This document shows positions 3,101-60,623 of a DNA stretch of 64,000 nucleotides, one piece after another. The DNA is from an uncultured Planctomycetia bacterium. GTDB taxonomy: Bacteria > Omnitrophota > Gorgyraeia > Duberdicusellales > 4484-171. The position numbers were made by a program, and so were the translations under genes. The stretch covers positions 21,895-85,894 of the forward strand of contig CAZABB010000003.1 in the NCBI GenBank assembly GCA_964483625.1. The letters run 5' to 3'. The notes below the pieces were generated by a model, which had not been told where the DNA came from, searched no databases, and saw nothing but the letters and a program-made list of their open reading frames with translations. How positions within the stretch are numbered: the stretch's first letter is position 1; each line of letters starts with the position of its first letter.

Positions 3101-6100
3101 AAGAAATATGCTTGAGGCGGGGAAACTGCCGATTATCGTTACCGATAAAGATTATTCGTTGATCGAGGTGGTCATTGATCGCCATATGTGCCAGTTGCTT
3201 TTGGCGTTTTTTGAATTAGTGTGGGATCGTTTCGGCATTTCTCTGCCATTCATCATTCTTACCAATAATACGAAATCAAATACCATGAAAACGGTGTGGA
3301 AGATTCTGATGGAAGAATTCGAGCAGAGATATCATCATCTGTCTGAAAGCGGGAAACGGAGAAAAAAACGTGAATTATTCGGCAACTTCATCATTAATTC
3401 CTGCGGCGGGCAAGTCTGGGTATGGGATGAAGCGGCAGACAGTGAGGAATTCCGGTTCATTGAAGAGCTGACGATGGAAGACGAAGTCGTTGCCGTCGTC
3501 CGGGAGGGATTTGATTGTCTCATCACCGAATATACCGATACTACCCGGTATGCTCCCGGGGAATGCATGCCGGTTCATCCTTACGGTGAAAGGATAGATC
3601 TTCGTCCCGGCGTTTCCGGCGACATGATCGGGATGACTCTTAAAATTCCCGGCCGGGATATTCCCAAAGATGAAAAGCGGCAATTCGATCCCGATAAGAC
3701 AAAACGGCAGATATGGAAAAAAGCGCTTTGGAGCATTTTAAAAGAACTCTGTCATGGGCTTGAACCGGATCTTGCGGAAAAGGTGAAAAGTCTCACCATA
3801 GAGATCGGCGGGACAACTTCAATCGACGTGACGGTGGGAGATAAGCGCCGGCGGATACAGCAGGTCATACGGCAGCTCGCTGTCCGTATGGAACTTCCGG
3901 AGGACGAAATAAAGAAAAGAATATTGTATTTCGGTGATGAATTCGATGTTGACGGCGGGGATTTTACCTTAATAGGACTGGTAGCGTTACTGGTGAATTT
4001 AGGGAGGACAAAGGTCGTTGCCGCCGAAGCGGTACGTGCCGGCCACATCTTCGTCAATCCCGAAAGCGACGAGCTTATCGGTCCGGAGCGGATGCGTGAA
4101 TATCTGAAGGCATTGATGGTACTTATTAACGTATTGCTTTCTCCCGATATATCTCCCGACGCTCTTCGGGAAAACATCGGGGAAGCAGTCCAGCCCGAAA
4201 ACTGGCATCTAAGCTCGTCCGTGGAAGTGGGGGCGCTCATCGAGCGGTATTTTATGCTCGATGCCGATATGTGGGAGTTAATACAGGATGTCGCTCGGCA
4301 GGGAGAGGATATTACAAGATTTATTGAAGCATTATATCAGTGTGAAGATTATGACGATATTGTCGCAGAAATATTACGGTCATTTTTCGCCCGGGAGCCT
4401 GAAGATGCCGCTCCCGACCATGATATCTTCATCGGTTTTGTCCGCGCCGATATCGCGTATCAGCCGACAGAACAGCGAGTTCTCCATGCAATTGAGTGGC
4501 AAGCGACGCTGAATGAATGGATAGGACGTTCGGATGATATAAGGGAATATATTAATATGTATCAGGTATTGAGAGATATGTTTGATGATTTTCTTCATGT
4601 ATCTTATTCGGAAAACGAATCTGGTATGAGAAATATCCCCGGACAAGGTGTTATCTCCGAGGACGGCCTCTCTTCCGTGGCTGCAGGTGCCCTCACCTTT
4701 GTCTGGGGTGTCTTTATGCCGCATGCGGCCGGGCCGAATTACCCACCAATCACGGGAGAAAACGAAAGCGCAGTGATTATCCTTGTCGTATCGGGATTGA
4801 TCCTTGCCGGTTGGATAGCTCTGGTATTGTTCCGGCAGGAGATATTGTTTTACAGTATCCGGAAACAGGCGCCGCCGTTGACGATACGGATAGTGATCCG
4901 GGTACTTTTCCCGCTTGGTTCTTTCCCTCAATGCGTGCTTGTCGTCGGTCCCAGCGGTGTAGGGAAAGACAAATTAACCGGATCATTATTTTCCCGCTAT
5001 CCGTCTCAGTTCACCCTGCTTCGGTTGACAACGACGCGCCGGCCCCGCCCTCAGGAAACGGATAATCCTTCAATGAAGAAGAACTATATGAGCCCGGAGA
5101 AATTTTCGGCTATGGTTAAACAGAACGCGTTTCTCATGAGCTGGGGTAACTATACCCATGCCTATGGATTGGAAGAACGGGAACTAAAACGATGTATCGA
5201 AGCGAGAAAGACCGTCATCATCCATACCGCGTCTCCCAAGGGAGTAAGACGCTGGAAAAAAGCTCTGCCTCAGGCAAAAGTCGTCCTTGTCTCGCCGGTT
5301 CCTATGGTATCCAGCCCGCTCCGTCCCGAGGAAAGAGATCAGGTAAAAGCGGTTCTCAGGCACAGGATGAGACAGAGAGAGGCTTTGATGCAGGCTGTGT
5401 TTGAGGTTAGGTTAGAGAAAGGAATAAAGCTCCTGGACGCGTTTCGTCGGGGAGAACTTGATTATGACGTGTGTGTCACGAATGGAAAAAATTCCGGTCT
5501 AGAAAGAGTCCAGCATGAATTTTGCCGGACGATTATCTCTGAAATTCAACCTCAGCGTTATGCGGGGCCGTTGATGGTAGGGGTTGCGTTAGGGATCGTT
5601 GTGATGGGATTGGCGAGCCCGGCCGGTTTTTCCGCGACCTTGGAGTTCTTTCTCCTAATGATCTTCCTGGGGATGATGTCCCCGGTCCGCGGCGAAGAGG
5701 ATCAGCCGTCTCCCGCTCAGAAAAAAGTCGTTCTTTTATTGGAGGAACATTCAGTGACTGGCGGTGCTATTTCGGAAATACCTTTAGATGATTCGATGAT
5801 ATTACGGGATAAGGTGGGAGTAATTGCCTTAAGAGAGCGGGTGGCTCGGGAAAATATCCGGCAAACGACCGGGCGGGGAGTGCGGGCGCTTGAGGGTGTT
5901 CTGAGAAGACCTGACGGGGGAAGCAAGGTCGAATCGATTGCCGCAGAGATAGCTCAGGCATTGACCGAATCCTTTATCTGGCTGGCGCAGGCTCCGGTTG
6001 AAGAAGTGATTCAACGGTTGGACTGGGTTCCCGTCTCTCTCGAACGGATAAGGAATATTGTTCAGGGTGATTCTGTTATCCAGATCGTGGGAGGAGTGGT

Positions 6101-9100
6101 AGAACCGTTGAATTTTTCCCGTCTCTTATGCGAAACAATGAATAGACAGGCCGGGAGATCTTTATCATATACGCTTTCTCCTTACCCCCGGACCGAAAAT
6201 CTCATTGGTCTGGCTCGGGGATTAGGTAAGACAGGTTTGCTTCGGGAGATAGCTGCAGCTTACCCTGAAGCGGAGACTATTCGCGTCCCGGTAATTGACG
6301 TGGGACGGGCTTTTATTAAGGTGGGATATGCCGAGTTTCGCCCCAGCGGCGTGTTGCTGCGGTTGGATTTAATCAGCAGTGTGGAGAACCGGTATATCGA
6401 TACTCGGATGCCGGAGAGAGGATATGAATTTAGCCTCAATACTCTCCTGAATACTCTTTTCCGGTGGGCGCAAGATCAGAAGGAATCAAAAAATCTCCAG
6501 CTGAGGCAAAAAGAGATTATTGTCAGTCCTTATCAGGGAATAGCGGTTTCTACTTCTATCCCGGAATATGTCCCGATTATTGAAAAGGAATATTTCATGT
6601 CGGAACGGTGTTCAGAAGGAGCATTTTTATTTCTAACCGATAATGTGCTTACCCAGACATGGGCAGCCACCCGGGAAAATACGTTGATCCTTACTCTAGG
6701 CGTTGAACAGTCTCTGGTATTGTCCCGTGAAGATCCTGAACTTTTCCCTTTAGCCAAAGCATTTGAAGTCGTTGATTGGATACGGGTGAATGAATGTATT
6801 ACTCTGATTCAAAACATGGGGTTGCTGGAGGAACCTCCCCTGGTGATGGTATCCCGCTACTGGGATCTTTACCGGAGATATCCATTGACGTTTCAGGAAG
6901 CAAAACGAATGCTGTCCACGCCGGCCGGCGTAAACCGTAATTATGAAATATGGAGCTGGCGTTCCGATCTTCATCCTCAGAAGACGTTACCTTCTCCCAG
7001 TGTGAGCATGATTTTCTGGCAGACATTGCTTACGTCCTGGCTGGAGCGTATTTATCCCCAGATACAGGAATTTGAAGACAGGTACGGTACGATATTCAGT
7101 AACCAGTTCGAACCGGGAGAGAATATGACCGGATATCTTACGCAGTTGCTCATCGGCGTTATGGTAGACTTGAAAGTCCGCTGTCCCGATCTGCTGAGAG
7201 ACTGGGGGGAGACATACGGGGATCATGAATTAAAGCACGCCTTTATGGTCATCCGTCAGGCTTTGGATTTTACCCTCAAACAGATAGCATATCAGCAGAG
7301 TACCGTCCCGGAAGATATTGCGGTGATTGCCAGAGAGCAGGCCGATGTGCGGGCGATTATCGCCGGTTCCCTCATCCATGACCTGGGACAATTGTACGGG
7401 GAGCCTCATGAGTGGGTCGGGGCCCGGCTGGCCAGAAGAGTTTTTATCTATTTAGGTATGCACCGCCGGGCGACAATCTATGAAAATATGACCCTGTTAC
7501 AGCTTGTCATGATGATTATTCTCAAACATTCTTCTTCCAGTAAGGTGCCTCCCGCATGGGATGATCCGCTGGAAGTGCGTATCGTCCATGCCGCCGATGA
7601 TTTTCAGCAGACGGTTGAACGTATTCATATTGTCAATAAGCGGAGAAACCGCTCTTTCTTCAAACGGGCCCGTACCACCCTGGCGCGGGTCGCGTTCATC
7701 GCGCTCCGTTCCGGTTCCTACAATGATATGAAAGACGGGCAGGGAGATGTGGATACGTTTACCACTCTCCTGAAAGCCCTGCTCATTATCACCGATCCCC
7801 AGGCGTATTATCTGGAAGTAGCGCGGCAGGAAGCGACGACTACGCTCCAGAGGAGATTCCTCAATGACTTCTGGGATCTTATTCAGCGGGAAGTCTCTCC
7901 GTGGGAATTGCCTTCGGTGATTGCGGCGGCAGAGGACTTTTTCCGCATCTGGGCTCAGTGGCGGGCCATGCCGGAGGTTATATACGCCCGAAAAGAAAAA
8001 TGGACAGCCGAGAGTCTTAAGAGCGTATTGAACGAATTAGGATGGTGGGATAAGATTGAGCCCCGTCTGAAAAGATCCGTTCCATCGCGATCCTATCCGG
8101 TCGAGAAAATCATCCCCGCGGTGATAGAAGAATACGGTCCGGCCCGGCTTTCCGAAACGGACGTTTCTGCCGACTCCTATGTGGCCGGCATATTATCGGA
8201 TTGGCGGGATATCGTCAGTGACACCGTGCCGCCGCAAAATCTTCCGATGGGATGCATGCTGTTCCTCTTGTCTCCGATAATACTTCCCCCGGACGGAGAG
8301 ATCCTTGTCAGAACAGATTGGATGTCTCTTGTCGTGCTATGCGTCGTATGTTTTTTGATTGTCTGGTGTGTCCGTCGCTCGCTGCGGCAAGATTGGATAC
8401 ATATGATGCTAGTGTTGGGAGGAGTATCGGTCGTTTGTTTAACTTACGCCGAAGCCTACGGGCCTTTTATGTGTTTGTTCCTGGGAGCAGTCCATATGGG
8501 ATCCGAGAAACGCGATGTATCCTCGACCGACGGCCGTATTGTTCTTGAACCGATCAATCTGGGAACGGTACGTCAGCACAGAGATCATATTCATTCCGAT
8601 CTCCTTTGGTTTGTCCTGCCCGATTTTCTCGAGCACGGGATATTGGATGGGTGTCGTCGTCTTATCGTTGAAGAAAGTGATAACTGTATTGAGGTCAAGA
8701 TAAAAAACCGTGATTTGATTTTGAGATTACCTTCCCGGAGGTTGCCGGAAGATGCTCTGCGGCGGGCTCTGAAGCTTTTCTTTGTTCAGCGTGAATACGT
8801 GGGGGCCGACGGAGATTCTTTGATGGTCGATATGAGAACACGCAGTGAGCTGGATGAACGTTACCGGCAGGCGTATGAGCAGAGAAACGAACGGGTAATC
8901 GACGCTTTCTTATGTGATCCCCGGCCGGTGAAAGCGGTCAATATGCTCACGCGTGATGGAATGTTTATTCGTAATCATCAGGAACTCTTTCCTTATATGG
9001 CCCTTCTGGCGGTACAGTATCAATATCAGTGTATTAACCACGACTATACTATCGAAGCGGATGAGTACGGGACGGAGCTTCCCGAAGCGATCGTAGATGA

Positions 9101-12100
9101 AGTGTATATAAATTATCCCGGCCGGGAAGACGCTGCGTTTGAAATGGTACGTGAAGCCGCAAGAATATTAAAAGATAGAGGCGTGCTTACCATAGTCTCC
9201 GGACAGATAAATTTACGTCTTGTCGAAGAAGAACTGAACGATATGGGGTTTTTCGGCTGTGAGATAACCCACGTCCAGGAAGAATATCCCCGTACCGGCT
9301 ACCAGGATGACGGATATCGGTATATGCTTCGGGCGGTGAGGAGACGAATGGATGAAACCAGAGGAGAAGATGGGAGGATTTCTCTGGCTGGAGCATATAG
9401 AGAAGCCGTGGCGATGATGGAAAGAGCGGCGCAATTCATCGGCGGCAAAGGCATTATCGTCACCTTGCAGTTTATCGAGAATTACATGCGGATATGGGCA
9501 CGTGATGGCATTTTCATCCTCCTGGCGGCGTTGATTTCCGGAAATTCAACGCTTATCGCCGCCGCCCGGCATATACTGACGACGTTACGCGACCATCAGA
9601 TAAAGACCGAAGCGCAGTTCGAAACAGTGTTCGACCGGGGCCGTATCGATGAGTTCGGCATTAAGCGGCAAATGGAAAGGATCAATCCCATAGGGATGAT
9701 CCCCAGCAACGTCGCTCGCAACGGACATACCAGTTACGGTATGCCGGAGATCGGCATTTTACGCGCCGATCCCACCCTTCTCTATATCGTCGGTTCTGCC
9801 ACGTATTATCGTTTTTCTCAGGCGAGGGAATTTTTAGATGAACATTGGGAATCAATACGGCTTGCCATGCAGTTTCTCGAAAACCAGTTCGGCCGTGAGG
9901 GGAAAGAATTGCTCTATACCAACCGGGCGGCGGATTGGGCCGATGCGTTTATCCAGAAAGGGAATGTGTTGTATATCAACACGTTATGGTATAAAGCGCT
10001 GATTGATTTTGCTTACCTCCATGGCCGATTGGGTAATAGCCGGGAGGCAGAGCGATATGGAGGGAAAGCACAGCGAGTCAAAGCGGAAATACAAAAAGAG
10101 CTGTGGATATATCGGGATGGAGACGACTATCAGGGGGGTCCCTTTTCGATATACGCGACGATGGGGGTGCCGTTGCCCAAGAAATTCGGATATTTCGCCC
10201 ATTTCCGCGATCCCGATCTTGATGACCAGTTAAGCCAGAAATATTACGGCGGATGTGATGTCATGGGGAACCTGCTGGCGGTCCTCTTCGGGATTGCCGA
10301 TACCGGACAGGCAGGACAGATTGTGGATTTCATCATATCGATTTCTGATAACCGCTATCCCCTGGCTCCGGCTCATTATCCCTTTGTCCGAGCCGAGGAC
10401 CTGAAAAAATTACTCCTGGCGAGGTTTAATTTCCGCGAGGAGGAAGGAGAGTATCATAATGGCGGTTTGTGGACGGTGATTACCGCTCTCCTTGTCGCAG
10501 TCCTGGCCCGTGTGGGATATGCCGCACGGGTTAAGGGAGATCCTGAGCAATCCGAGAAATATTTTCGTCTTGCCGGACAGTTTTTATCGGGCATCAAGGA
10601 CGCCAATCAGAGAGAGGGAGATACGGGATACCGTTATTATGAATGTCATCGCAACGATCCGGAAAAAGAAAACAGGCCGCAGGGGACCTATGACTTCATT
10701 CCCAGCGCCGCCGCGTTTGTCATCGCCTCTCATCAGTACGTATGCTGTTTGCGTCAGGTCGGCCGGATGCCGTCCAATAAAGAACTGGAGGATTTGACGG
10801 AGAGAGTAAGTGTTCCCGACAATTCTGTGTCGAAAACATACGGGGAAGAATTATTACCGAAGGAGCACGTATTTTCGTGCGTTCTCTTCATCCTCTTGAG
10901 CGTATTCCTGATGGGGCAGGGGGCAGTCGACGGGACGCATCTTTCTTATCTGGCCGCGTTTTCGGATGTTTTCGCGGCCGGTTCCTTTTTCTTCGTCTTT
11001 CTACTCGGAGCATGTACGGAAAGAGATGATGATACGGGAAGAATTCTGAGGCAGATGAACCGTTTGAAGCGCAATCTCGAAACCATTGCGCCGGATGAGC
11101 GGGAGGAAATCTTACGGAGCTTCCGGACGTATCTTTATTCATTACGTGAGAATCTTACCGCTTATGATATCAAACTTGAACGGCATGTAACCATTGATGC
11201 CGTCATTGGCGGGATCAGGGCCGATGTCGGGAACGCGGTGAGGGACAGCAGGTTCGTACGTAAATTCAAAGACGAATTGACCGATATCGTGGACGATACC
11301 GACCGGGTTGTCGCCGTCACCCCGGCAGGTTTCGTGCATATGTTCGGATTGCGCCATCGAAGTGTCAATGCGTTTGTCATGAGTCCGGCCGGTGACGTAG
11401 TATTGCAGCGCCGGGTACATAATAAAGCCGAAGCGAAACGCCTCTCGATTTTCGGAGGGCATGTCGCGGCCGGGCAGAGCTATAGGGAGGCGATAGAACG
11501 CGAATTGCTGGAAGAGCTCGGTCTGGACACGATCGGAAAGGTTCTGGGCGGCACATTGATTCTTCTCGGTGAAGAAGGACAGTTCCGCAACGACGCCCCG
11601 GCGAACAACGAGTTCCGGTCGCTCTATGTGTATATTTTGACCGGGCGAGAATATGAGCAGGTACGGTGGATGCGGGGCGATATCAACGAAAAGAAGAGTC
11701 AATATACCGAAGAAGAATTCCCCGACTGGATCGAAGTACAACAGAAGAAAAGAGAAGGGTATGGCGAAGTCTGGGGATACCATTTCGCGTCTTTAGAATC
11801 AGTCTTTGCCGGCTCAGGCCTCTCGGTCGAAGAAACGTATTCCGACGGCACGCTTACCGAAACGGTCGATTATACCCACGATCTTCTTCTTCCGCTCGTG
11901 CGGGGGAACGCTCCTTTGCGGGATGACGGGCGGGGATTTGATCTGCGAAAGGAAATTGAAAACGTTTTGCCCGATATTCCGGGAGTGTCATTCTTCGCCG
12001 GGCTTATCCCCGTGCTTTTTCTCGGAACGGGTTACTTTGCCGGTATGTCCGATATCCTTTCATCCCTTCCTTTTTTCTCATTTATGGACCTGCCGGTGTC

Positions 12101-15100
12101 CGGCATGTTTCTGTCTCTGATCTTCTCATGCCTGTCGATTCCTTTTCTCCTGGCCGTCATGGCCCCCTACGATGATACCGTGGTGTGTCGTTTGGCTGGG
12201 AAAGTGTTCGACCGTACATTTACTTCCGCAAAGGAAGCAATGAATGAACTACAAAAAGCACTGCGCAGCAATGATGTCGACCTTTTTATGTCGGCCGCCT
12301 CGGCTCTGAAACGAATAATTGAACAAAGTAGTAATCCCTGGAAATTATTCGTTTCCTGCCGTGTTCACGGAAGTGCTTTCGAGAAAAATATTGCCCGGTA
12401 TGCCGTGGAGAGATTGATTTCTGCCGCTCAAGAAAACCTCAATTCTTTCTCTACCCGGCTGAACCGGATGCGGGCATTTTTGAATAACGTAGGGATCGTC
12501 ATATTTATGAGTTTTACACAGGAAGGTGATTTTGTTTTGGGGTGGGAACAATTCAGGGATTATTTTCTCGAAAAAATTCCACATTTCACGTGTGATGATG
12601 AGTTGCCTGAAGAGCTGGAATTTCCCGCCGGACCGGAAAAGCTTGATGTGAGCGCCGTACCGGTCTACGAATCGCCTGAGGAAATTTTCCGGGCACGGGG
12701 AATAACGCACAACGAGTATGTGACGACGTTGGGAAGAAAATGGATAGGACGGGATTCCGCCGCTCCCGATGCCTGGGAATATCTGGTACTGAAGATGCTC
12801 CAGAAAGGTGAGCAACCGGAGATTTTGGTCCGGGAGGGGAACAACTTTATTTTTCTGAATAAGGCGCGAACGTTTTTAAAATTAAAACAACAATGGGCCC
12901 GTCCGCTTTCAGCTCAGAAAAGAGGAGAAGCGTCGGATTACAATGAAGACTTTGTCTGTAAAGTGAAGATAGATGAAGACCGGCTCTCCAGCCAAAGCCC
13001 TCTGGTATCCCTCAAAGATCCTTCGGTACAACAATACGATGGATACTGCCTGGTCCTGGTATGCCGGGAACGGTTAGAAACGTTGAGCTGGCTGGACCGG
13101 GCCGAAGACATCGAAGGGAAAGAAATAACCGAGCGGCGCTTCATGAAAGGAATTTTCCTCGCCGTTCATGATTTATTTGTCCTGTTGCGGTACAGAATCG
13201 TTCATCCTGACCTGGCTGAATTGTTTCACGACGAACGCATTCCTTCTCCCGGAAGCACGGTTTCTGTAGGACAAAATCGTGATGACGGCGGAATCTATCG
13301 CTGGCCCGATTGGGGAAGGTTGGGAGCCTGGAAAAGGAGCGTGACATATTCCAACCTCCGCCTTTCCGGTTTCTCCGATGCGGCAAATATGTATTTCATC
13401 CGCTCGCTAAAGAAAGATCAACCTCTGACGGATCATTTCGCGAAATGTGGATTAGACGGTGATGCTTCTTTAGGGGAGTGGTTTTACCGTATTGCCGGGA
13501 GGTATCTTCTGGTCGTGGCCCTGGTTATTGCCTGCTGGCGCATTGAACGGGAGAAGTTCCACCGCCAGGATGAGCCGGCATTATCCGGACAGCTCCGGAG
13601 GGTATTCGCTTATGCCGTTGCCGTACATACCGGTGTCAGGGGAAAAGAGGGAGGTGTTGTTGATAGTGTATGTTCACTTCTTGACTGGGACCGTCTGGCG
13701 CGGCAGATGCTCTATTTTATGGACGGGGCGTATACGGCCGATTTTCTCAGTGAAGAAGCATCTCATCAAATAAGGAGGAAAAAGATCTATGCGCATACTC
13801 AGGGGGTTTTTATCCCGTCTCCGGAAAAGCTCATCGAAGAATCCCTTGGCTGGGATCTCCAACGGAAAGATCGTAGTATTTTTGATGAAAAGATCGGATG
13901 GAGCATGGTTTCCGGATATGCTGATTTAGGTGCGCCGAATGGGAAGAATCCTCTTCTGCAATTGCATAAAGCTCTTACCTTGATTGCTCTGTTCATGGTG
14001 GCTTCGCGGGGTATCATTGTCGCTCAGGAGGACCGCATTTCCGTTGAATCCGCTCGTGAAGAATATGTATTGGGTTCCTGGATGTTTCCTTTGGTGCTTC
14101 TGGCGGTATGTTTCGGAGTACATATCGATTTTTCCGGAGATATCCTGGTCGGTACCTGTACGTTTTGTACCGGTGTGATATTGATACCTGCGATACTGGG
14201 AGTGATGACCGTAAGAAGCGATGAAGTAACGTATGTTGAAACGGTTTTGGCCGAATTGGATGAACTTGACCGTTTCCGTCCGGGACATGCGGCGCGGATC
14301 ATAAGCCTCTTAGAGGAGATCAGAAGTTTTGAACAGCGTGCGTGGCGTTCCTTTCAGACAGAACATATCGTACTGATTTTTGAATCGTTACATTCATTGC
14401 AGCGGACCCTTCCTTTGCAGGAGGGGGTAAGAGAAATCAGTCCTTTGCGTGAAGCGATTCACGAACATATTGAGGACAGTATTGAGCACTGTGCGTTTTC
14501 CATGCTCAAGGAGTTAACGCGGCATCCCGTGATCCTTAAGCATTTTATCTCATCGTTCGGAGAGAATCTGATCCCCTTGATTGTATTTGCCGAGGACAGG
14601 GAAGCGCTCAAATTTCTCAGTGAGCTTCCTCAGATATCATATGAGTTGCAACGATCTCAAGTCGAGCGGAATCCTCATTTGGTGGTGAAAGATTCCGAAC
14701 TGTTCTCTGCCTGGGAATATTTAGCGTTACACGGGCTTACGTTCGATGCCCTGCTTGTAGGAGTCACCAAGCTGAGTGTGAGTGTGAACCAGGCCCCTCG
14801 GGAAAAAAGCATATATAGTAAGCTTGTACATTCCAGCCGGACATTAAACTGCCCCCATATCCATCCCGACAACTTGTCCGGCGCAATCCATGCTCTTTTA
14901 CCTTTATATTTCGGTGAATATCTCGAACCAGCGTTGTCTTTTGTTGCCGAGGCCCGTAATGCGGCGGGATCAGAGACAGTGCGGCCGGAGGTGTTAAGAT
15001 CTCTGTTCTATGATAGATTTCTCACTACGAGAAAAATTGTCGTTCGTCTGAGTGAAAATTACGGCGAAACCCTGCATGATTTTTATCGTCTTACCCGCTG

Positions 15101-18100
15101 TTCCGAACCGTTCATCGCTACCGCGGCTTTTGAACGCGTCCTGGAGATTTCCGCGGACAGTATCGGGGGAAGCCGCAGGTGGGAGTCCGAGGTGAATGTC
15201 CGCGAATTAATACAGGTGGCACGGACATTTCTGATACCATCGTTGGTTTCGCTGATAGACCATGAAGATGAACTCGTACGGTTAGCTTCCTATGACCAGT
15301 TGGTCCATCTCGCTGAAGACAAATATCTGTGGGAATGCGCCGATGAATCCTTATCCTTGTCTTCCGCCGGCTTAATGCGGGAAGCCGGCCGGGCTTTAGA
15401 GGATGTCCGTTCTCCTCTCCCGGCGTCTGGCGACGGGGCTTCGACCGTATTCATGCCCGATTGCCGGATAGGCATTACGGTTGAGGCCGTGGCCCGTACG
15501 GGGAAAGATTTTCGGATTGTAGGAATGGATTTTGGTGTCGAAGTTGCCTGTGAAGCATGGCAGAGGAACGTGATATTCGAGCGGGTGACAATTATGGTAT
15601 GGAATAAATGGCGTCCCGGTTTTACGCCGGAATCAGTTGCCGCCGTTATTTGTTTGAATCCCTTCCTGGGGCTTAAGTCGCTTCCTCTTTTGCATCCAAA
15701 GGGATTAGTAAAATTTTCTTATTCTCCCGACTATCTTGAAGAAGAAAAAAGACAGATGGAAGAACGTTGGATTGATACTATTCTTATTCCGGGCGGGAAA
15801 ATCATAATGGCTGTCGCCGATATTACCGAACAGAATGAATACGCTCAGATATTCTTTGAGCGGTATCTATGGGCCCGGGGGATCTGGGAACGGGTTACCG
15901 GATGGGAAGGGGTTCTTGCCCTGCTTCCCGGGATCTCTTCGGAGGATAAGAAAATGTTCATGTTTACCAAGCACGCTGAAGAAGATCCGTTCATACTTCT
16001 GCCCTGGCCTCTGCGGACGATGAAAGAAGGAGATCGGTTGCCTCACCTTAATTATTTTGCCCATGCGCTCAAAGAGGCATTTCGGGAAAAAATGGCCGAT
16101 GTCATCGAACGTTACCAGGGACGAAGAGCCCGATCCGGATTGAAGCCGGTTCGGAACATCATGGTGCTTATTGGCCGTCTCTCCGGTACCGATGGGGTTT
16201 CTCTGGAAACCATGAAAATAATTCGCCGGTTAAAGGCTATGGGACACAATGTAGCGGTGTATACCGGTAAGATCGATGACGTGAAACGGAGAGAGTTGGC
16301 TGAGTTAGAGGTTCCCGTACGCCTCAACAAAACGGCGCGGTTTCGACGCCAGACACTGGAGGGTTGGGGGATCCTTGAAGGGGGCGTTGCCGCCGACTGG
16401 CTTTCCTGGACGCACCCGACCAGCCTTGAAGATGAAGATAAATACCAATGGATGGCCGATACGCTTATTGACGATGTAAAAGAACTGATTGAAGATATCG
16501 TTGAGTTTGTAGATGAGCATGATATCGATGTCGTACTCGGACAGAACCTTTCACTTCCCTGGTCATATCACCTTTCTCTGGCGGTTATCGTTCTCTATGA
16601 AATTTTCGGGATACATTTTATCGGTCATGACCACGACTTTGCCGGTCAGCGCGACTATTGGGGGAAGATAGCCGAAATACTGAGAGAGGTCTTTCGTGAA
16701 CTGTGTCCGCCTCACATCCCCACGGCGATTCACCAGGTCATCAATACCGCGTCTATCCGGGCCGTTCAGTCTTCGGCCCTTTTCGGCCGGGTCGTCCTTT
16801 TGCCCAATGTGTGGTATTTTGATACCCCGCAGGAAGAACTTCCTCCCGAGTTGCGTTCCCGTACCCCCGAAGAACTGCGGGAACTGCGTAAGGTGCTGCG
16901 TTTAGAAGAACACCATGTTCCGTTTCTGGTACCCGTTCGTCTGGTGGAACGTAAAGACGTGATCAGTAAACTGTTAATCGCCTATCGTTTGAAACGAATC
17001 TGGCATGAGGAGGGAAGAGAGTTAACGCCGGTTCTGATTGTCACCCATGATGTAGCCGATGAAGGGGAGGCGTATTTTCGGAGGATCCGGCGTATAGCCG
17101 ACGCGTTACATCTGGAGATGCGTTTTGTCCATGATGAATTAGACAGGTATGAGGGATCGGTGCGTTTTACCGAATGGGATGCCTATAAACTTCCCGATGT
17201 CATCGGTTTTTATCTTTCCACCTGCGAAGGGTTCGGGAATGCTCTGCTGGAGATGATTTTCTTCTTCTGTCCGTTTATCATTCATCCCTACCCGGTATTT
17301 GAAGACGATATCAAACCGAAAGGAATCCGAGCTCTTGAAGAATATGTGCCCGCGGACCGAGGGGAGCTCAACCGGCTTATTGAAGAAATGGAGGTAACGG
17401 CGGCAACCCGGGATTCCGCCGTCGTCGGTGCGGCTCGGGCTGTTTCCCGTGAGGTCCTGCATTTCCGCAGTACCTGCATACCGGGTAGGTGGGACGGCCG
17501 CTGGACGGAGGAGACAGAAACCATGCTTAAGAGGAATTATGAAATTTGCCGGCAGTATTATGCCATGGGTACGTTAAAAGATATCCTGGAGGGCACATTG
17601 CATATGGTCGATAAAGTCGCTGTTATTGAGTGGGTTTACCATCGTCTGCGGGAAAAATTAAGAATGATTTCGCTGGAACATTCTATCCCGCCCTTTTTTA
17701 CCGCTGAGACCTGGGAGAAGGTGATTATGAGGTATATTGGTGAGAAGTTCGAAGAGGTCCTCATTGAGCTTGACCGGGAAGTAAGATCGTTCATGGTAAA
17801 CGGAGGCAATATCGGCAGTGAGATTGTGCGGCGGCAGTTACGGAATGATTTTATGCGTTACCTTGGCATTATTATTCCCGCTCTCTCTCAGTCGCAGAAC
17901 TCCATCTTTTCCTTAGGGCGTCTTTTCCTGCCGCGTGAGGAAGACGGATATGGATTGGATGTATTACTGCGGCAGTATTTTCATTCCCAATGGGGCGTTA
18001 CCGTGGAGTTTTATCCCGAAAATGAACCGGCTGTTTCTCCACAAATACAGCCTTCCTATCTGCTTCGAGCTATCGAGTCCCGTTACGCTCATGGCCGGCC

Positions 18101-21100
18101 GCTCTGGTGGGTTCGCGCCCTGTTGAGCCCGGTGGTCGTACCGCATGAGGCGGGTAATCTTATCCAGGCGCGGGTGACGGGCAGGTGGGATGATATCGAT
18201 TGGGACAGTTCCAGTATATTCGCCGGTATTACATATCAAGGGCGAGCGCCGCCGTGCGCGGGGGGGATTATTGGGAATATCATTTGTGCCGTTGTTTTTT
18301 TAATATCATCCTTTTATTTCCCTGGCTTGCTTGTTCTGGCGGTTGCTCATCTGATTCATATTGGATTTGAACTCCGGAGATACCGGCAATATAGTCGGGA
18401 AGAGGTTGTAGCCGAACCGGAGGCATTGATGTCTCCGGCTTGCCGTTTTGACGGATATAGGCGTCTGACCGCCGCCAGTCAGTACGATGCGGCCCGACGT
18501 TTTCAGGATGAAAAGATAGCCGCTGAGGGATTCAACCATCTCGGCGACATATTATCGCGTATCGGCCATTATATTTTTTATACGGGACATTATCAGGGGC
18601 CGGATCTCGCGGAGGAGTGTATTGATGAACTGGTCATTGCGGCGAATGACCCTCAGACGATGTTTCGTTCTATTCAGACGCATAGCCGCGAAACCGCCCG
18701 GAAATGGTTCCTCTGGCATCTTGAAAACCTGCCGGGATTGCGGCTGTCCGCCGCAGATATCCATATGGTCATGCAACATATTGAGACCTATGTGGAAGCT
18801 TCTACGCAGGAAGCCGCGTTCGCCGCTCAGAGAGATTTGTTCCGAAAGGGAATAAAACCGTCAATCGACTATTCGTTCCTGCCGTACGCGGTCGTTTCTT
18901 TCGATTGGAGTGCTCTCCAGATTTTATTTATAAGAGTAGAAGGATTTCGTGAATTTGTGCGTTATCTTATCACACGTGACGATGTTATTGTTCTGATAAA
19001 TACGCGCGGCGGCAATCACGAAAAGATCGCCGAAGAGATGACGGCACGGTTATGTGGTTTTCGCGAAAGCCTGTATTATCAGGGGACGCTTCCCTGGCTC
19101 GATCTTGAAGTGGATATGGAATTTTCCCGGGAACAGGTGGTATCCGCCCCTCAGGGGATCATGAATAAGTTCGATGCGCTTGAAAATTGGCTGAGCCGGC
19201 GCTATATAGCTCCCCGATATATTATCCATGTCGACGATAAGACCGTTGAGTTTCTGGCGTTTCGTAATAACATCAGTCATCTCAGAAGCATGATGACTTC
19301 GTTTATCCCGATAGATATGGATCCGGATCCTTCGCTCCAGACCGATGATGCCACGGTCGAGATAAAAGCCCGTGAGGCGTTTGCCCGTTTAAAATCTCTT
19401 CTTGCTTTTTCTCCCGGCGATCCCGCGCGCAGTTCCCGGGAATTGAACGAAGAGGAGGTTGAAGAACTCAGCCGGATCCGCGATACCCACTGTGTTACGA
19501 TTGATGTGTCAGAGACAGTCCCTCTCTACACAGAAGAAAAAGAAAAAACCGCATTTCTTCTGCACCGGCATGGGTACCATGCTGTCGCCGAGGTCTTAGA
19601 AGGTTCGATTGTCATTCAGGCTCCGCCGCGGCTGCGCCGGGCAGTAGAAAAATTTCAGTCACGTCATCGCGATCCTGCCGTAACCGTCCACGCGCTGAAC
19701 GCTGCTGTTCGGAAACAAAACCTTATCATCATTCTGGATGAGGAGCATATCGAACGTTCCCTTATTCATGAAGCCGGCGCTCTTGCCGGCTATGCCGATA
19801 CCTATAACTACCGGCTGGAGAATATTACTGAATCGACGGAAGAAGAGGTTCTTTTCCATTCAAAAATATCCCCGTTTGTCGAACCGCGTGTTCCTTGCGT
19901 AGAGGTAACCTTCGATTTTTCCGATATCCCCGCCGCCCTCGATACTGTCGCGGCCGGCGTCCGCGCCCGGACCGGGTATACCGTGGGGGCCCGCTTTGAG
20001 GTGAGAATCGACGGATTTGAGCCTGACGAATACATCCAGTTTAACCGGGGAGGGGAGCCGAAGATACTTTTCCTCGCTCCGGCGGGAGAACGAGTGATCC
20101 ATCACCGGATTAAAAATCCTCACACGTTCACTTCCGAAAAAGAATATCTGGCTGATTTACAACAGCGTCTGATTTCTTCCGGAATGAGTCCGGACGGATT
20201 GAACGTAAGGATGAGCTGTGACGGAACGCCGTATCAGATTACGGTCGCGATGAGCAGCCCGATCCGGGAGAAAGAGATCGAGAGGATACGCCGGATATGT
20301 GCCTTCCCGTCATATCGTATGCGGGCAATGATGAAAGCTGTCTGGGAAGAAATGGAGCGGGGCCTGCGCGGATTAGCGAGTTCTTTGCGAATGCTGCCTT
20401 CCTACACGGATATCCCCCGCGGAGAAAAAGGTCTTTATCTTGCGCTTGATCTGGGCGGCACCAATTTCCGGGTATTAATGGTTCACCTTCGCGGCCAGGG
20501 TGAGAAGCCGGTTGTAATCAGTAAAAAATATAAGCTTGATGAGAAGTATATCCGGGGAACCGGCCGGGATCTTTTCGATGCGCTTGCCGGATATATCAAG
20601 GAATTTTTGCGGGAACACGGTTATGAAGATGAATATGTCGTAGGATTTACCTTTTCTTTCCCCGTCGACCAGAAAGCGATAGACAAAGGGGTTCTTATTG
20701 AGTGGACTAAAGGATGGGATGCGGCAGGGGTGGAAGGAGAAGACGTCGTCCGGTTGCTGAATGAGGCGCTGGAACGGGTAGGTGTGAACAATGTAAAAGT
20801 AGTCTCGCTGGATAACGATACCGTAGGAACTCTTGTCGCCCGGGCTTACCTTGATTCCGAATGTGATATTTCCGCGATTCTGGGTACGGGAACGAATGTG
20901 AGCTATCGGGAGATGGCCGCCAATATTATAAAGTCCATCGGTCCGTACGCCGGCACGCATATGATTATCAACATGGAATCGGGTAATTTCAATAAAGCTT
21001 TGCCCGGTACCGAATATGATTTGCTCCTTGACGCGCTGTCGGCGAATCCGGGCGCTCAACGCCAGGAAAAAATGGTCTCAGGGAAATATCTGGGAGAGCT

Positions 21101-24100
21101 CACCCGTCTTATTCTGATCGATTTGATCGAGAAGGGAGTACTTTTAAAGGGAGACGTTCCTCATCTTTTGCGGAAAGGAGATAGTTTCGATAGTATCCAT
21201 ATGGCTACGATCGAGGGGGATACGTCGCGTGCGTTCTGGCGTACGCGCTGGCTCCTGCGGCGCTGGTATATCGTTCCCTGTTCGTGGGAGGACGCCCGGG
21301 CCGTTCAGGAAATCTGCCGTTGCGTTTCCACCCGGGCGGCTCAGGTTGCCGCGACATTACTTGCGGCGACGGTAGTAAAAACAGATCCCGATCTTGCCCG
21401 GCATCATACGATTGCCGTTGACGGAAGTATATTCGAAAAGTACCCCCGTTTTGCCGAGAAAATGGAAGAGACATTTGCGATACTGTTCGGCGAAAAGTCT
21501 TCCCTGATTACCATGAAACTTACCCATGACGGGTCCGGTATCGGCGCGGCGGTTATCGCGGCGATCGCGGTACGGATGGCTCAAAAATCGTCTTCGAGGG
21601 TATCGGCAGATTCAACGCCGTATCAAGCGGTACCGGGATTCTTCCTGGGAATATTCAGTGCCAATAGCTTTTTTATTGAAAGAGGGGACATCTCTTTCTC
21701 GTCTTCCGTATTTTTATATATTCCGGTTTTTCTGACGCTGACCGGTATGCTGATTGTGCTTTATCTGCTCTTGCGGTCCCTGTTGCCTCCCTTTTCTCCC
21801 GTTCCGGTCTCTTCTCCCCGCAGACCATCCCGTTCGAGCCGTGACGAAGGAGAAAAAGAAGGTTTCGTATCAAATATCACACAGCGGTGGTATGTGGTGG
21901 GCATCGGGATGCTCATTGTCATATTACTCCTGGCGATAGCACTGAAAAGCGGAGCGGTAAGTGTGTTCTGTTTTGCTATTCTTGGTTCAGTATTGACTGA
22001 CGGCGATAAGGTGGGACAACGGAAAAACGGGTATACCCTGATTGAAGAGGATATAGAAAAGATCGTCGAAGCCGCACTACATGTTCTGGAGAACACCGGA
22101 GTTAAAGCTGATGAAGGGTCTTTGCGAGAATGCTGGCGTCAGCTTGGCGCTCGGATAGATGAAGAAGAGAGCCGCGTGTTGATATCCCGTGATCTGGTTG
22201 AGTACGCTCTCGGGGAAGCAGCCTCTCAGGTGCGGTTATACGGAAGGATTCCTGATCCTGATGACGGTCGTAATCATGATGTGGTCGTGGGAGATGGAGA
22301 GGTGTATCACGGAACAGGAGGCAAATGCGGAAAGGTGATGGATACCACGGGAGAAGTGCGTGAAAGTAGATTAGCCGATTTATTCCATATCGGACGGGTC
22401 GTAGAGACCTGTGAACATCTTAAGTTCTACATCTCCCCGGTCAGCGCCCGGGATATCCCTTCCAAAATCGAAGCGGTGAACAGGTTCTATGTCTGTCTGG
22501 CGGCGACTCATAAACACGTGATGACCAATTGCGAATCGCTCGTTTTAGAGGATGAACCCGCCGGGATAGAGGGAAAAGACGGCACCGCTTTGGCTGTCGA
22601 AAACGTACGTGAAGTGATCGAGCTTGCCGCGATGATCGCGGGAGATAAAAAATCATTGCGGGAACGTCCGATCATTTCCTTTATTGTTACCGGGATTATC
22701 AGCCCCCTGTCGTTCGATTCGTCGGGGATGAAAATATTGGACGAGATACTCGACCAGGGAATTCCCGTGATGCTTTCTTCGGCCCCGCAGACAGGGACGA
22801 CCGGTCCGGCGGCGCTTGCCGGTACGCTGGTTCAGGTCTATGCCGAACAGCTTGCCCTTCTTACCTATATAAACCTCAAAAAATCGGGGTATCCGGTGCT
22901 TCTGGGAGGAATGCCTTCGGTAGCCGATCTGCGTACGGGAAGCTTTTCCGGCGGGGCGCCGGAATTTGCGATGATGAACGCCGCGGCGGTACAGATCGCC
23001 GGTTATCTGAAGCTTCCGATCTGTGTCTCGGGAGGGATGCCGGACACAAAAGTCCTCGATTGTCAGGACGGATATGAGGAGACCTTGCGGATGTGGACCG
23101 CATTTTCCAACGGTTGCGCCCTCCGGCATGCCGGACTGATAGAGGGTGGGCTTACGGCTTCATATTCCCAGTATCTGCTTGATGATGAAATGATTGGCCT
23201 CCTTGTCCGGATAAGACGGGGAATTCAGGTAAACGATGATACGCTTGCCGTCGGAGTTATCGATGACGTGGCAAGAAGTTCCGGTCATTATCTAGGACAG
23301 GAACATACCTTACAACACATGCGTGATGGTGAATTCGTGTACCCGCGATTGATGGACCGCAACGCGCGTGAGATTTGGGAACAGTCGGGAGGGCTCACGA
23401 TGGCCGAGAGAGCCGCGCGGGAGGCGGATAAGATTCTTGCTGAAGAAGGAGGAATCGTTATCGATAGTGAAACGGACGAACGTATACGCGAGCGATTTGA
23501 TATACGCCTGCCGCGAAATATCGGAAAGCCTCTTGGAGACCGGCCGGTGTATATTTATATCGAACCATCGCGGGAAATGGAAGAGTGTCCGGAAAGGGTA
23601 GAAGATACCGTGAAGGTTGTAGAGCAGATATCCGGAGGGAGAATAGAAGTGTTTTCTTACGGCGATATTACCATAGAAGAGGTTAAGGAACTTAATCCTA
23701 CCGCTCTTATTCTGGGAGGTTTCTATCACAGCTGGGAGGATATTTCAGTGTCTTCGCTGTATAACATTCTTAAAGTCATCCATTGGGTAAGTATTCCTAT
23801 CCTGGGGATCTGCGGCGGACATCAGCTTTTGGGTTTCGCCTTCGGTCGGTTCTTGGGTGGAGAAGTCTTTGTCGATCAGTCGATCGTAGACGAAGGGACT
23901 GTCGTGGAAGGTTTTTATCCCATTACTCACGCAGAAAATAACCCTCTTTTTACCGGTGTTCCCCAGCAGGCCTGTGTGTGGTGTCATCATTCCTGTGAGA
24001 TAAAAGTAAAACAACTATCTCCGATGTTTACCGTGACTGCCGGGAGTGGGCATTGTGCCATCGAGGCGATCCAGCATCTGTATCTTCCGGTGTTTGGGGT

Positions 24101-27100
24101 GCAATTTCATCCCGAAAGGTTTAATCGGGAACATTCCTATGGGAAGAAGGTATTAGAGAACTTCTTTTTTCTGGCGGAGAGGTATCGCAATATCAATGCT
24201 GGTCTTCAGGTCGGCTACCGTCAGGGGGGGCGTATTTTTGTGAAGCTGTTCACAATGCGCACCTATGCCTTTTTATTGCGGCGATGGCGTAGAATAAAAA
24301 CCTGCATACATATCGTCCGTCCTCGTATCGTCGATACAATACATAAAATAACGCAGGGATATTCACAGTGTTCTCAGAAACTTAAAGATGTTTTAGGGAA
24401 GCGCTTCCGGGTGTTCAAGAGATATGTAGCCCTTTCCGGCAAACGTACGGATTTGTCCCAGAGGGATGATTGGAATCGTTTGTATCAGGGATTGGCATTA
24501 TTGGGATTGTTAAATATAGATTCTGATACCGGACGTCCGGTATTGGTGCAGGAGTTGAGAAAACAAGGCACATCGATCCAGGATGTTCATATTCTCCTTT
24601 ATGTCACGATTATGTACGGATTGATCAGAGGAAACGTGACTGCCAGTGATGGAGAAGGGAACTTTGTCATGCAGAGTGCTCTAAGCCGGCATCCGGCGAT
24701 CGCCGAAAGATTACTCGTCTACATTCATGCCCGGTTTCATTATATTGCCGAGGGAGACAACGAATATGTTTCTCAGAAGAGGAGAGATATCGAAACAGTG
24801 ATTGAGGAAACCGCGGGAGGCGATATCGTGTTGTTTCAGAACTATCTTGTCATGTGTGATGCTCTGGTGACATCAAATGCGCTTTCCTGGCGGTACAATT
24901 CACGGGATCCTCCGGTGCTGGTTTTTGACGGCCGGATATTGCCTCTGCCCGACCACAGCCCGGATATCTATCGGGTGATAATGATTCCCGACCGTACCGG
25001 AAGCATTTCTCTGGTGATTAAGACCGATGAGGTTTCTGCCGGAGGTATCCGTGTGAAGTTCCTGGATGGCGGTACTACGTGTTTGAACGATATCTTTGAA
25101 GAAGACAGCGGTCTGGCTATGGGAATGGCGTTTAAGGATGTCTGGGCTTCTTTGGTGAGCAATCCCATCCCTTATTTGGGATCAAAGACTCTCACCGTGT
25201 TGGCTCCTGATGCCGATATCGATAATGTACTTATCCGTATGGGACGGTCTCTCGTCAATGTAATCGGCGATGACGGCGTTTGGCCCAAGAACATTGCCGG
25301 TCCGGACATGAATTCCGCCGGGCATATTCAGGGGTTGGTCGATGCCGTACGGGATGAATACCGGCGGCACGCCGAATATGAATGCGCTCTGCTTCTTGGC
25401 GAATCGGGAGGAGCAGAACACCTAGTTGAACGTGCGTCTTTGGGAGAAGAATCTCCGCGGAAGAAGCTGATGTTGTACGATTTCGATGATCCCGCCCTGA
25501 AGAAATATCATGACGTGTTAGCCGGAGTCGAACAAAAACGGGGAAAGTATTTTCTGCGTGATCCGTTTATCTGGGCGATGCGCGAAGAGATTCTGGCAGG
25601 AATACGCCGGAATCAGATACGGCTCTCCAGCGGCTGGCAGGGATTGATGTGGTACATCGGGAATGTTCTCCGGCGGCTGGCTTCCGGCGACCCTACGCGT
25701 TTCGGTATACGTCTGCGGTTAGATCGAGACACCGAACGGACGCTCAACAAAATTATTGGTGTGGCGGTAGGAGGAGGGGCACGTCTCGAAGGTTCATTAG
25801 TTGCCGATGCCGATCTTGCCAATATTACCGCGTTAGGATGTGCCTATGAGCTTGTTCATGTGGTGCGGTATATGGTTGCCTCCGGAAAGGTAGAGCCCGG
25901 TGAAACTCTGAAACTTGCCGTTACCGGTACCGGTCAGGTCGGCGGCGCGATGGTTTCTCTCATTGAGGAAATAAACGGACAGTTGACCGGTACGGCCGAA
26001 ATCGCCGTTGTTGCGATCGCCGAGAAAGGATCCGAACAGTCCGGTGTTATCTATAATCCCGGCGGGTTTACTTTCGAGCAGCGTGAAATTTTACGACGTG
26101 CGCGGGAGGGAAGAAACGATGCGGTGCGAAACGGATATACCGTCGAAGCGATGCGGGGGATACTCCCGGCAGAACAGATTATCGAGGTTCCGTCCGAAGC
26201 GGATCCCCGTGATGCGCTTCTTAATGCTGAAGTGGAAGCCGATATCCTTTTTGCTGCGGCTGCCGGTCCTACGGTAACGGCGGAGAATATCGAGGCTTAT
26301 GCCGCGAAATTTCCTCTGGCAATCATCGCCGGAGAAAACAACTGTTTTGGTACCAACGCGTTCTCCCGGGCGGAGATTGAGGATGCGTTGCATCGGGAAG
26401 GTGTCCTTGCGCTGGAAGGAGATATCGGGAATTTCGGTACGGTATATATTGTGTGTGCTATGGAAGGATTTCTTAAACATAGATATTCCGTGCCGGAGCT
26501 GCGAAAAATATGGAGAGAGATCAAAGAACAGGCTCGATGTGATGTGGTTGAAAAAGAAGCGGGATTGATTCCTTTTATGCTCCACGTCAGTGCCGCCCGC
26601 GATATACCTGCCGGAGAGTTCCAGCGTACGATCGTCAGCGAAATGAAAGACGAAATCGTCCGCCTGATTGCGTCGTATGAGCAGGGTGAAAAGGAAGTAA
26701 CCGCGAAAGTTGATACGTTGATTCGTGACCGATTACGTGTGCCGCAGCATTCGGTCCCGCCTTCTTATATGCCTTTTGCGGTCGCCCGGATCTGGGCGGT
26801 GATGCAGGTTGCGCGAAAAGAAGTTTTTACCCGGTACCAGAGAGAGATATCCGACGAGAATATACAACTGCCCCGGCAGCTAAGCTGTGAAGAAGTCTCT
26901 CCTCCGGCGCGGGACGGCAAAGAAAAGCTTCTCGTCCAAAGAATTGTCCGGGCGAAGCAGAAACTTCTTTGTGTGTGGCGAAGAATAAAGAGCCTGTTGG
27001 TGTATGGGAAGAATAAAGGGGTGGGTATCATTACCCGGTTGAAATACGGCAGTGTGCTTATGGTTTTGCGGATAGTACGATATGGTACTGCGCGTCGTCT

Positions 27101-60591: not shown

Positions 60592-60614
60592 GTGACACCT
60601 AAAATGTATAGTTA
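60590..60614 (+). repeat. 25-bp direct repeat, right copy. It overlaps the transposase stop codon
   Basis: AGGTGACACCTAAAATGTATAGTTA. Confidence 0.9.
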
Positions 60615-60623
60615 AGCGTTGAT

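Follow-up and report, generated by a model that had tools for sequence, protein, structure and literature searches.

A single open reading frame (ORF) in a 64,000-nucleotide window of an uncultured Planctomycetia bacterium assigned to the Omnitrophota (assembly GCA_964483625.1, contig CAZABB010000003.1) encodes a giant membrane protein in which a hexokinase, a glycoside hydrolase family 100 (GH100)-like glycosidase and a family 4 glycosyltransferase (GT4) are embedded among many other enzyme domains. The window is the whole stretch of DNA analysed, and all positions refer to it. The protein is probably an inner-membrane-anchored, cytoplasm-facing enzyme array of the type described as "Archaeovorin" or "multi-enzyme metabolic cluster". 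Judged from their sequences, the sugar domains look catalytically competent. They are one theme among many and are neither a discrete pathway nor a cell-wall-degrading device: the sugar and nucleotide domains make up about 8–10 of about 25 recognisable enzyme domains spread over 54 kb.

27 to 54515, plus strand: giant ORF of 18,162 amino acids with about 55 hydrophobic helices; frame open at the left window edge.

An ORF scan of the window places the protein in a single frame of 18,162 codons. Upstream of nucleotide 27 there is no in-frame stop back to position 3, and the gene may start at the window edge or slightly before it. The frame is open to base 1 of the window; the listed start is a TTG at nucleotide 27, and other methionine codons lie at residues 16 and 33, before a signal-anchor-like segment. 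The probability of 18,162 stop-free codons by chance, estimated from base composition, is about 1e-398. The gene has a G+C content of 0.49–0.52 compared with 0.45–0.47 in the downstream housekeeping genes, and GC skew is positive throughout the window (1–64000). The original prediction placed its sugar-handling domains in one membrane protein, and the domains that it named were found at or close to the positions it gave, all within this one ORF.

20277 to 21566 (residues 6751–7180), plus strand: complete hexokinase domain (PF00349 and PF03727), identified by Pfam, PDB match, motifs and tree.

The hexokinase domain scores 196.3 bits with the Pfam model Hexokinase_1 (cutoff 24.3) and 215.3 bits with Hexokinase_2 (cutoff 24), and the two models are covered nearly end to end and in order (positions 2–201 and 2–242). 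A PDB search matched the domain to each half of human HK2 with E values of 2e-79 to 2.5e-76 and about 40% identity. LDLGGTNFRV is encoded at nucleotides 20445–20474 and DGSGIGAAVIAA at nucleotides 21528–21563. Alignment to human HK2 shows that LDLGGTNFRV, GFTFSFP, EWTKGW, NDTVGT (with the catalytic Asp), GTGTN, INMESGNF, EKMVSGKYLGE, VDGSIF and DGSGIGAA are kept. We take LDLGGTNFRV to be the phosphate-1 motif, GTGxN the phosphate-2 motif and DGS and GxGxGAA the adenosine motifs, and the catalytic Asp and the residues that bind glucose complete the assignment. In this alignment the ATP, glucose and catalytic motifs are all intact, and the glucose and ATP site residues singled out by the original prediction are all kept.

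The relatives of the hexokinase were taken as the 120 best matches among 5.8 billion proteins. Vertebrates apart, these are free-standing proteins, mostly of 410–480 residues, with 45–55% identity to the giant's domain, whereas the vertebrate two-domain hexokinases among them are 35–40% identical. Named relatives from Aminicenantes/Acidobacteriota share 50–52% identity and those from Omnitrophota 46–48%; the hexokinase family is common in the Omnitrophota metagenomic neighbourhood. A neighbour-joining tree with a vertebrate root placed the giant's hexokinase within the bacterial clade in 20 of 20 resamplings and as the sister of a 49-sequence group that includes Acidobacteriota-labelled sequences in 19 of 20. 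The branch of the domain is long, and the four Omnitrophota-labelled sequences in the tree stand apart from it. The majority of the sister group is unlabelled, and for this reason a horizontal transfer cannot be claimed. These relationships give no sign of a eukaryotic origin, and the ancestry of the domain, as read from the tree, is bacterial. The label "eukaryote-type" that had been attached to this hexokinase holds at the level of the Pfam family but not for its origin, the nearest relatives being bacterial stand-alone enzymes, and the tree speaks against the eukaryote-like ancestry that the label invited. Compared with the free-standing bacterial hexokinases (about 440–450 residues), the giant's copy has the same motifs, the same length and 46–55% identity over the whole domain, and differs in being embedded at residues 6751–7180 of a membrane protein.

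9399 to 10706 (residues 3125–3560), plus strand: GH100-like (clan GH-G) (alpha/alpha)6 glycosidase domain, identified by Pfam, profile, fold and motifs.
About 42390 to 43865 (residues 14122–14613; listed feature 42846 to 43655), plus strand: second (alpha/alpha)6 domain, GDE_C-like, identified by Pfam, hhalign and motifs.

The GH100-like domain scores 24.5 bits against PF12899 (cutoff 23.6) over 86 residues only, and the Bac_rhamnosid6H, GH94 and GH116 models give similarly marginal Pfam scores. Its relatives are single-domain, non-secreted, stand-alone proteins of about 420 residues that carry PF12899 and PF06202 and share about 30% identity with it. The profile of this family matches InvB (2.8e-20), InvA (4.1e-18) and CINV1 (1.9e-17) in the PDB. 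The AlphaFold (AF2) model of the domain has a predicted local distance difference test (pLDDT) score of 83, and its 23 best Foldseek matches are all GH100 enzymes with template modelling (TM) scores of 0.66–0.71; the closest fold is InvA (TM score 0.70). The domain contains DWAD (nucleotides 9933–9950), EYHNGGLW (nucleotides 10449–10472) and YYECH (nucleotides 10635–10649). InvA Asp188 corresponds to the second Asp of DWAD (residue 3306) and InvA Glu414 to the invariant Glu of YYECH (residue 3539). Asp188 is the catalytic acid of InvA and Glu414 is the base (PMC6995568), and the clan GH-G context of the GH100 residue roles is described elsewhere (bioRxiv 10.64898/2026.07.01.735942). By this correspondence both catalytic carboxylates, whose check the original prediction had proposed, are retained in the giant's domain. 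The Trp platform of InvA comprises W376 and W434, and the W376 equivalent is present in the giant's HNGGLW.

The GH100-like domain is like Anabaena InvA and InvB and Arabidopsis CINV1 in its barrel, its catalytic Asp and Glu and its YHNGG-W motif. It differs from the solved GH100 enzymes in being only 15–20% identical to them and in being part of a separate family, whose members have about 420 residues and score with GDE_C and MGH1-like models as well. At this level of identity to the characterised invertases, sucrose should not be assumed to be the substrate. The second barrel scores 26.6 bits with GDE_C (cutoff 21) and is related to the family of the first barrel with 93% probability by hhalign. 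Its motifs are IWTRDS, TWMD and DYHGGNTCW, and a single-sequence PDB search with it gave zero matches. The GH100/GDE-like call originally made for the two barrels agrees with the GH100 profile and fold matches of the first and the GDE_C match of the second. A YHNGGxW motif had been attributed to both; it is present in the first barrel as EYHNGGLW, but the DYHGGNTCW of the second differs.

16149 to 17636 (residues 5375–5870), plus strand: GT4-type retaining GT-B glycosyltransferase domain, identified by NCBIfam, fold and EX7E motif.

The GT4 domain matches the NCBIfam model for mannosylglucosylglycerate synthase (MggS) with 97 bits (E = 1e-27), against an equivalog cutoff of 640. PF00534 gave no match at E ≤ 1, and the best Pfam model was Glyco_transf_4 at 16.4 bits. 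The relatives of the domain are stand-alone PF00534 proteins of 410–450 residues with 25–31% identity. In an alignment that includes the giant's domain, all 43 invariant columns hold in it, the EX7E motif among them (EGFGNALLE, nucleotides 17226–17252, residues 5734–5742). The AF2 model (pLDDT 80.6) has the GT-B fold, and its best Foldseek matches are GT4 enzymes: 7mi0, MshA, HepE, BshA, WaaG and sucrose-phosphate synthase (SPS). Neither a single-sequence nor a family-profile search found a PDB relative. The GT4 transferase claimed by the original prediction is thereby supported by the GT-B fold, the EX7E motif and the NCBIfam score. The domain shares the fold and the motif with the retaining GT4 glycosyltransferases MshA, BshA, HepE, WaaG and SPS, and differs from GT4 enzymes in lying below every Pfam glycosyltransferase model although its homologues have PF00534.

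Other enzyme-like domains are spread along the same polypeptide.

4932 to 5411, plus strand: guanylate-kinase-like domain (Pfam 55.9 bits, TIGR03263 56 bits).
11352 to 11633, plus strand: Nudix domain (PF00293, 41–46 bits, above cutoff).
32859 to 33083, plus strand: DUF4922 domain (Pfam 43–51 bits).
35559 to 36281, plus strand: HAD-IIB (Cof-type) phosphatase-like domain (motifs DIDGT, TGR and GDGYNDKD).
37794 to 38786, plus strand: uridine-kinase/PRK-like domain (41–48 bits, P-loop GAGGSGKT).
41745 to 42206, plus strand: possible second HAD-like domain (DMDGV motif and a 14-bit match only; no Pfam match).
49275 to 50096, plus strand: WbuX-type N-acetyl-sugar amidotransferase-like PP-loop domain (TIGR03573 55.6 bits, SGGKDS).

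The Nudix box of the giant reads G-x5-Q-x7-RELLEELGL; set against the reference box GX5EX7REUXEEXGU, the REUxEE core is whole and Gln stands in the place of the first Glu. The uridine-kinase-like domain consists of the P-loop and the C-terminal half of Udk with a large insertion between them, and the WbuX-type PP-loop domain is preceded on its N-terminal side by a Cys-rich ribbon. The scores and motifs of the uridine-kinase-like and WbuX-type domains uphold their original assignments, and the PF00293 score upholds that of the Nudix domain. All database matches of the HAD-IIB domain are below the curated cutoffs. Two HAD phosphatases had been proposed; one stands, on its motifs and weak matches, and the second has only the DMDGV motif and the 14-bit match. 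The guanylate-kinase-like P-loop, GPSGVGKD (nucleotides 4947–4970), has an Asp in the Mg-coordinating Ser/Thr position, and this domain may be catalytically altered. GDP-sugar-phosphorylase/HIT-type proteins, we assume, carry DUF4922 as their C-terminal domain.

Membrane helices lie between the modules. A hydrophobicity scan finds about 55 hydrophobic helices, roughly one per 330 residues, in keeping with the original call of a single membrane protein. Within the GH100-like domain, the confident structural model shows the hydrophobic segments as helices of the barrel and not as transmembrane helices. At least 11 pairs of helices form tight hairpins, each with a loop of 0–13 residues, between soluble modules. 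Such hairpins lie on either side of the GH100-like, Nudix, SidJ-like, GT4 and hexokinase modules, and the hydrophobic segments of this region are as follows.

8319 to 8450 (residues 2765–2808), plus strand: transmembrane hairpin before the GH100-like module, from hydrophobicity.
10866 to 11018 (residues 3614–3664), plus strand: transmembrane hairpin with a 13-residue acidic loop, from hydrophobicity.
11976 to 12170 (residues 3984–4048), plus strand: transmembrane hairpin, from hydrophobicity.
14064 to 14213 (residues 4680–4729), plus strand: transmembrane hairpin, from hydrophobicity.
18276 to 18374 (residues 6084–6116), plus strand: hydrophobic hairpin between the GT4 and hexokinase modules, from hydrophobicity.
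21714 to 21944 (residues 7230–7306), plus strand: transmembrane helices starting about 50 residues past the hexokinase domain, from hydrophobicity.

The short hairpin loops, which are often acidic, contain 5 Lys or Arg in 83 residues, compared with 0.15 Lys or Arg per residue in the 15-residue flanks. Because the loops are poor in Lys and Arg relative to their flanks, the positive-inside rule would place them on the outer side of the membrane and the modules on the inner side. A cytoplasmic location of the modules is also expected because most of the recognisable domains need ATP, GTP, nucleoside diphosphate sugars (NDP-sugars), glutamine, S-adenosylmethionine (SAM), NAD(P), FAD or Fe-S clusters. 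ATP and NDP-sugars are not available outside the cell, and GH100 enzymes are cytosolic. From the cofactor needs and the hairpin loops we infer that the sugar domains most likely lie on the cytoplasmic face and not in the cell wall.

The favoured arrangement is an array in which soluble modules of about 200–2,750 residues, each from an ordinary free-standing bacterial enzyme, would be strung on one polypeptide. The transmembrane helices, mostly tight hairpins, would pin these modules to the membrane, all on one face. That face would be the cytoplasmic one, where the cofactors needed by the hexokinase, GT4, Nudix, uridine- and guanylate-kinase-like, WbuX, class-I glutamine amidotransferase (GATase), radical SAM and methyltransferase domains are found. 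A clan GH-G inverting alpha-glucosidase such as the GH100-like domain would release glucose from an alpha-glucoside, and the hexokinase would trap the freed glucose as glucose-6-phosphate. From an NDP-sugar, GT4 and HAD-IIB could together make a glycoside, and the Nudix, DUF4922 and nucleotide-kinase-like domains might act on nucleotide or nucleotide-sugar pools. Apart from the second HAD, which is only possible, the domains of the originally proposed sugar "set" are present in the one protein, but they do not form a discrete set, being selected from about 25 heterogeneous domains.

A specific sucrose or mannosylglucosylglycerate cycle run by the GT4, HAD-IIB, GH100-like and hexokinase domains was weighed but not taken up. 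The GT4 domain scores well under the MggS cutoff, the fold search has no preference for SPS among the GT4 enzymes, and the HAD-IIB domain is 18 kb off among unrelated domains.

Several observations weigh against a wholly cytoplasmic, catalytic array. The topology comes from a home-made hydrophobicity scan and not from a trained predictor. Helix counts are ambiguous in the transmembrane clusters at residues 1581–1602, 4649–4729 and 7222–7324, and Lys and Arg are abundant in three loops, two longer ones and the short RRSLRQD. Some modules, notably the dark 1,530-residue N-terminal region, could lie outside, and for this first module the side depends on which of the candidate start codons is used. 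Some domains are degenerate or partial, with the Asp of the guanylate-kinase P-loop, the Gln of the Nudix box, the weak MoCoBD matches and a Trp-platform residue of the GH100-like domain as examples. In that last case, a near-invariant Trp column before an invariant Ser is occupied in the giant's copy by Pro after a short insertion. The region upstream of the hexokinase also has next to no relatives with which the GH100-Nudix-GT4-hexokinase domain order could be compared.

The reading of the original prediction, a unit coupled to the membrane for cleaving, phosphorylating and tailoring glycosides in the service of extracellular cell-wall attack or attachment, appears unlikely. Earlier studies of giant proteins proposed a surface "coat" and cell-wall degradation and noted glycolytic domains with a predicted extracellular location; glycoside hydrolase and glycosyltransferase domains are indeed present, and the parity of some transmembrane clusters is uncertain. 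Against this, the hexokinase, GT4, Nudix, uridine-kinase-like and WbuX domains depend on ATP or NDP-sugars, the GH100 family is cytosolic and the hairpin loops are poor in Lys and Arg, and on these grounds the proposed cell-wall or attachment role is not sustained. Domain scans of the giant detected no adhesin, dockerin, lectin, peptidoglycan-hydrolase or signal-peptidase domains, and the downstream genes are housekeeping genes and not sugar importers, glycosidases or PilZ genes. It is similarly doubtful that the giant is a polyprotein, translated and then cut into ordinary enzymes so that the fusion is a mode of expression only. Its domains do resemble complete stand-alone enzymes of 410–450 residues, and the C39 and S8 peptidases of other giants have been suggested as their cleavers (West-Roberts et al. 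2023, bioRxiv 10.1101/2023.11.21.568195). The giant itself has no peptidase domain in the scans, its modules are parted by transmembrane hairpins and not by recognisable cleavage linkers, and comparison of the giant with itself revealed no repeated linker or cleavage motif.

The enzyme folds might instead be largely non-catalytic binding or structural modules of a scaffold, which would leave the sugar set without metabolic meaning. The degenerate or fragmentary pieces (the GKD of the guanylate-kinase P-loop, the Nudix Gln, the partial ELFV, the MoCoBD domains and the second HAD) point this way, as do the identities of only about 30% between the GH100-like and GT4 domains and their relatives, the lack of a recognisable domain in more than half of the protein and a heterogeneous content with no pathway logic. 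A scaffold is nevertheless improbable in view of the catalytic and substrate residues, which are fully kept in the hexokinase, GH100-like, GT4, HAD-IIB and PP-loop domains, as expected under selection for catalysis. An artefact, with unrelated genes fused by a chimeric assembly or a mis-called ORF, is scarcely credible. In its favour, the public gene index contains neither the giant protein nor the downstream SecDF that served as a proxy, and the scanned metagenome collection contains no close relatives of the region upstream of the hexokinase. Yet a stop-free frame of 54.5 kb is not expected by chance at about 1e-398, the antisense ORFs have no Pfam matches, internal starts are not enriched, and hundreds of comparable giants are known from long-read complete genomes.

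Two alternative gene arrangements were examined and set aside. Five minus-strand ORFs of 156–330 residues were considered as antisense genes, had zero Pfam matches and were judged spurious. A hidden operon with internal starts was also rejected. Neighbouring genes of the organism use GGAGG-type ribosome-binding sites, and ATG codons preceded by such a Shine-Dalgarno sequence amounted to 2.6% of all ATG codons in the giant's frame compared with 3.1–3.4% in the other frames. A tRNA scan of the 64-kb window found none.

More than half of the giant, including residues 48–1580 and 17258–18162, has no Pfam match. Self-comparison of the dark N-terminus (window 192–1847) shows about four divergent units of about 150 residues with 26–28% identity and no Pfam match. 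The recognisable remainder includes a radical SAM domain with the motif CNLLCQGC, a weak HD domain, a class-I GATase domain, a Glu/Leu-dehydrogenase-like (ELFV) piece, a small-domain methyltransferase and Helicase_C. The domain scans found only Helicase_C (26–30 bits) and one 13.5-bit HEAT match among the helicase and repeat classes, and no peptidase. Three further features were listed.

12702 to 13442, plus strand: SidJ-related pseudokinase-like stretch, weak (NCBIfam NF033874, 32 bits, E = 5.6e-8).
19407 to 19829, plus strand: orphan domain of about 140 residues that recurs in other long multi-enzyme proteins.
33954 to 34370, plus strand: EamA (DMT superfamily) transporter repeat, a domain match inside a multi-transmembrane block.

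The SidJ-like stretch lies between the Nudix and GT4 modules, also matches the SidJ polyglutamylase subfamily and has no Pfam match. Two MttB-like domains of the trimethylamine methyltransferase family (22038–23492 and 27084–28565) are 42% identical to each other, contain no in-frame amber codon and together score 558 bits in Pfam and 640 bits with TIGR02369. A xanthine-dehydrogenase-like module at 44505–48287 combines 2Fe-2S and FAD_binding_5 (87 bits) domains with weak MoCoBD_1 and MoCoBD_2 matches, and a PEMT/ICMT/LmtA-like membrane methyltransferase is embedded at 48705–49220.

The orphan domain was recognised in the 634-residue region upstream of the hexokinase. This region had no relative in the JGI metagenome collection, and an exhaustive HMMER run against 1.84 billion representatives gave 20 matches (P0193–P0212), all of them to the orphan domain of about 140 residues. 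Pfam scans of five of the matched proteins showed three to be long multi-enzyme proteins. The orphan domain lies directly before a ROK sugar kinase in P0197 and between a GT2 and a PEP-utiliser domain in P0196.

The genes downstream of the giant are hisI, trpE, rpsP, yajC, secDF, an IS200-like transposase gene, an mfd-like ORF and a SurA-like gene. The downstream SecDF is 60–70% identical to the SecDF of many Omnitrophota metagenome-assembled genomes (MAGs), some labelled "uncultured Planctomycetia", and about 35–48% identical to that of most other phyla listed, which bears out the Omnitrophota origin proposed for the contig. In the related Omnitrophota loci that were examined, the 10 kb upstream of secDF contain no giant ORF. 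The IS200-like Y1 transposase gene is followed 32 nucleotides on by the mfd-like ORF (window 59722–62516), which is short at 630 residues, starts at the UvrB-interaction domain and is possibly truncated by the IS200-like insertion.

The cytoplasm-facing array can be taken a step further, to a membrane-stapled two-dimensional metabolon in a genome-reduced, host-dependent cell, where it would stand in for free-standing sugar-entry enzymes. The cell would then have no hexokinase but the embedded one, which, together with the GH-G glucosidase, GT4, HAD-IIB and nucleotide domains, would process host glycosides beneath the site of host contact. This extension is speculative, and we give it a low probability. 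If it were true, giant genes would serve to co-localise and co-dose captured housekeeping enzymes and would not be surface weapons. The residue-level evidence shows that the embedded hexokinase, GH100-like and GT4 domains keep their catalytic machinery and derive from bacterial stand-alone enzymes. Modules parted by tight hairpins fit a cytoplasm-facing array better than the widely repeated picture of cell-wall attack. These results bear on what the Omnitrophota giants do and do not settle the question.

ORFs longer than 20 kb occur across the Omnitrophota and are poorly conserved and sparsely annotated (Seymour et al. 2023). West-Roberts et al. 2023 define "Archaeovorins" by their content of glycosyltransferase, methyltransferase, glycoside hydrolase, peptidase, radical SAM and NUDIX domains, and giants with glycosyltransferase, glycoside hydrolase, NUDIX, radical SAM and glycolytic domains are already described there. 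Nielsen & Lui 2026 (bioRxiv 10.64898/2026.06.07.730766) catalogue 916 long proteins, name a "multi-enzyme metabolic cluster" class, report one giant with 9 hexokinase (PF03727) domains and read giants with only transmembrane anchoring as cytoplasm-facing. In the consulted portions of these two reports, the GH100-like domain, the two MttB-like domains and the xanthine-dehydrogenase-like module are not mentioned for the described giants. Compared with the described giants, the present protein lacks, in the domain scans, a detectable copy of their divergent SecA_DEAD helicase domain as well as detectable C39 or S8 peptidase, dockerin and clear HEAT domains. Its downstream neighbours are housekeeping genes without the PilZ, solute-binding or sugar-import and glycoside hydrolase genes found beside many giants, and at 18 kAA (thousand amino acids) it stands at the small end of the size range. 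Such giants are also described with a T2SS locus upstream, on a side of the gene that here lies beyond the window. The present protein is like the Archaeovorins and multi-enzyme giants described there in its Omnitrophota host, its ORF of more than 10 kAA, its density of transmembrane helices and its domain mix of glycosyltransferase, glycoside hydrolase, methyltransferase, NUDIX, radical SAM, HAD and sugar kinase. It is also like them in its largely unique sequence, with long stretches that have no recognisable domain. The protein belongs to the Omnitrophota multi-enzyme giants, whose class and hexokinase content are already in the literature, and it adds one well-dissected case to these unexplained genes.

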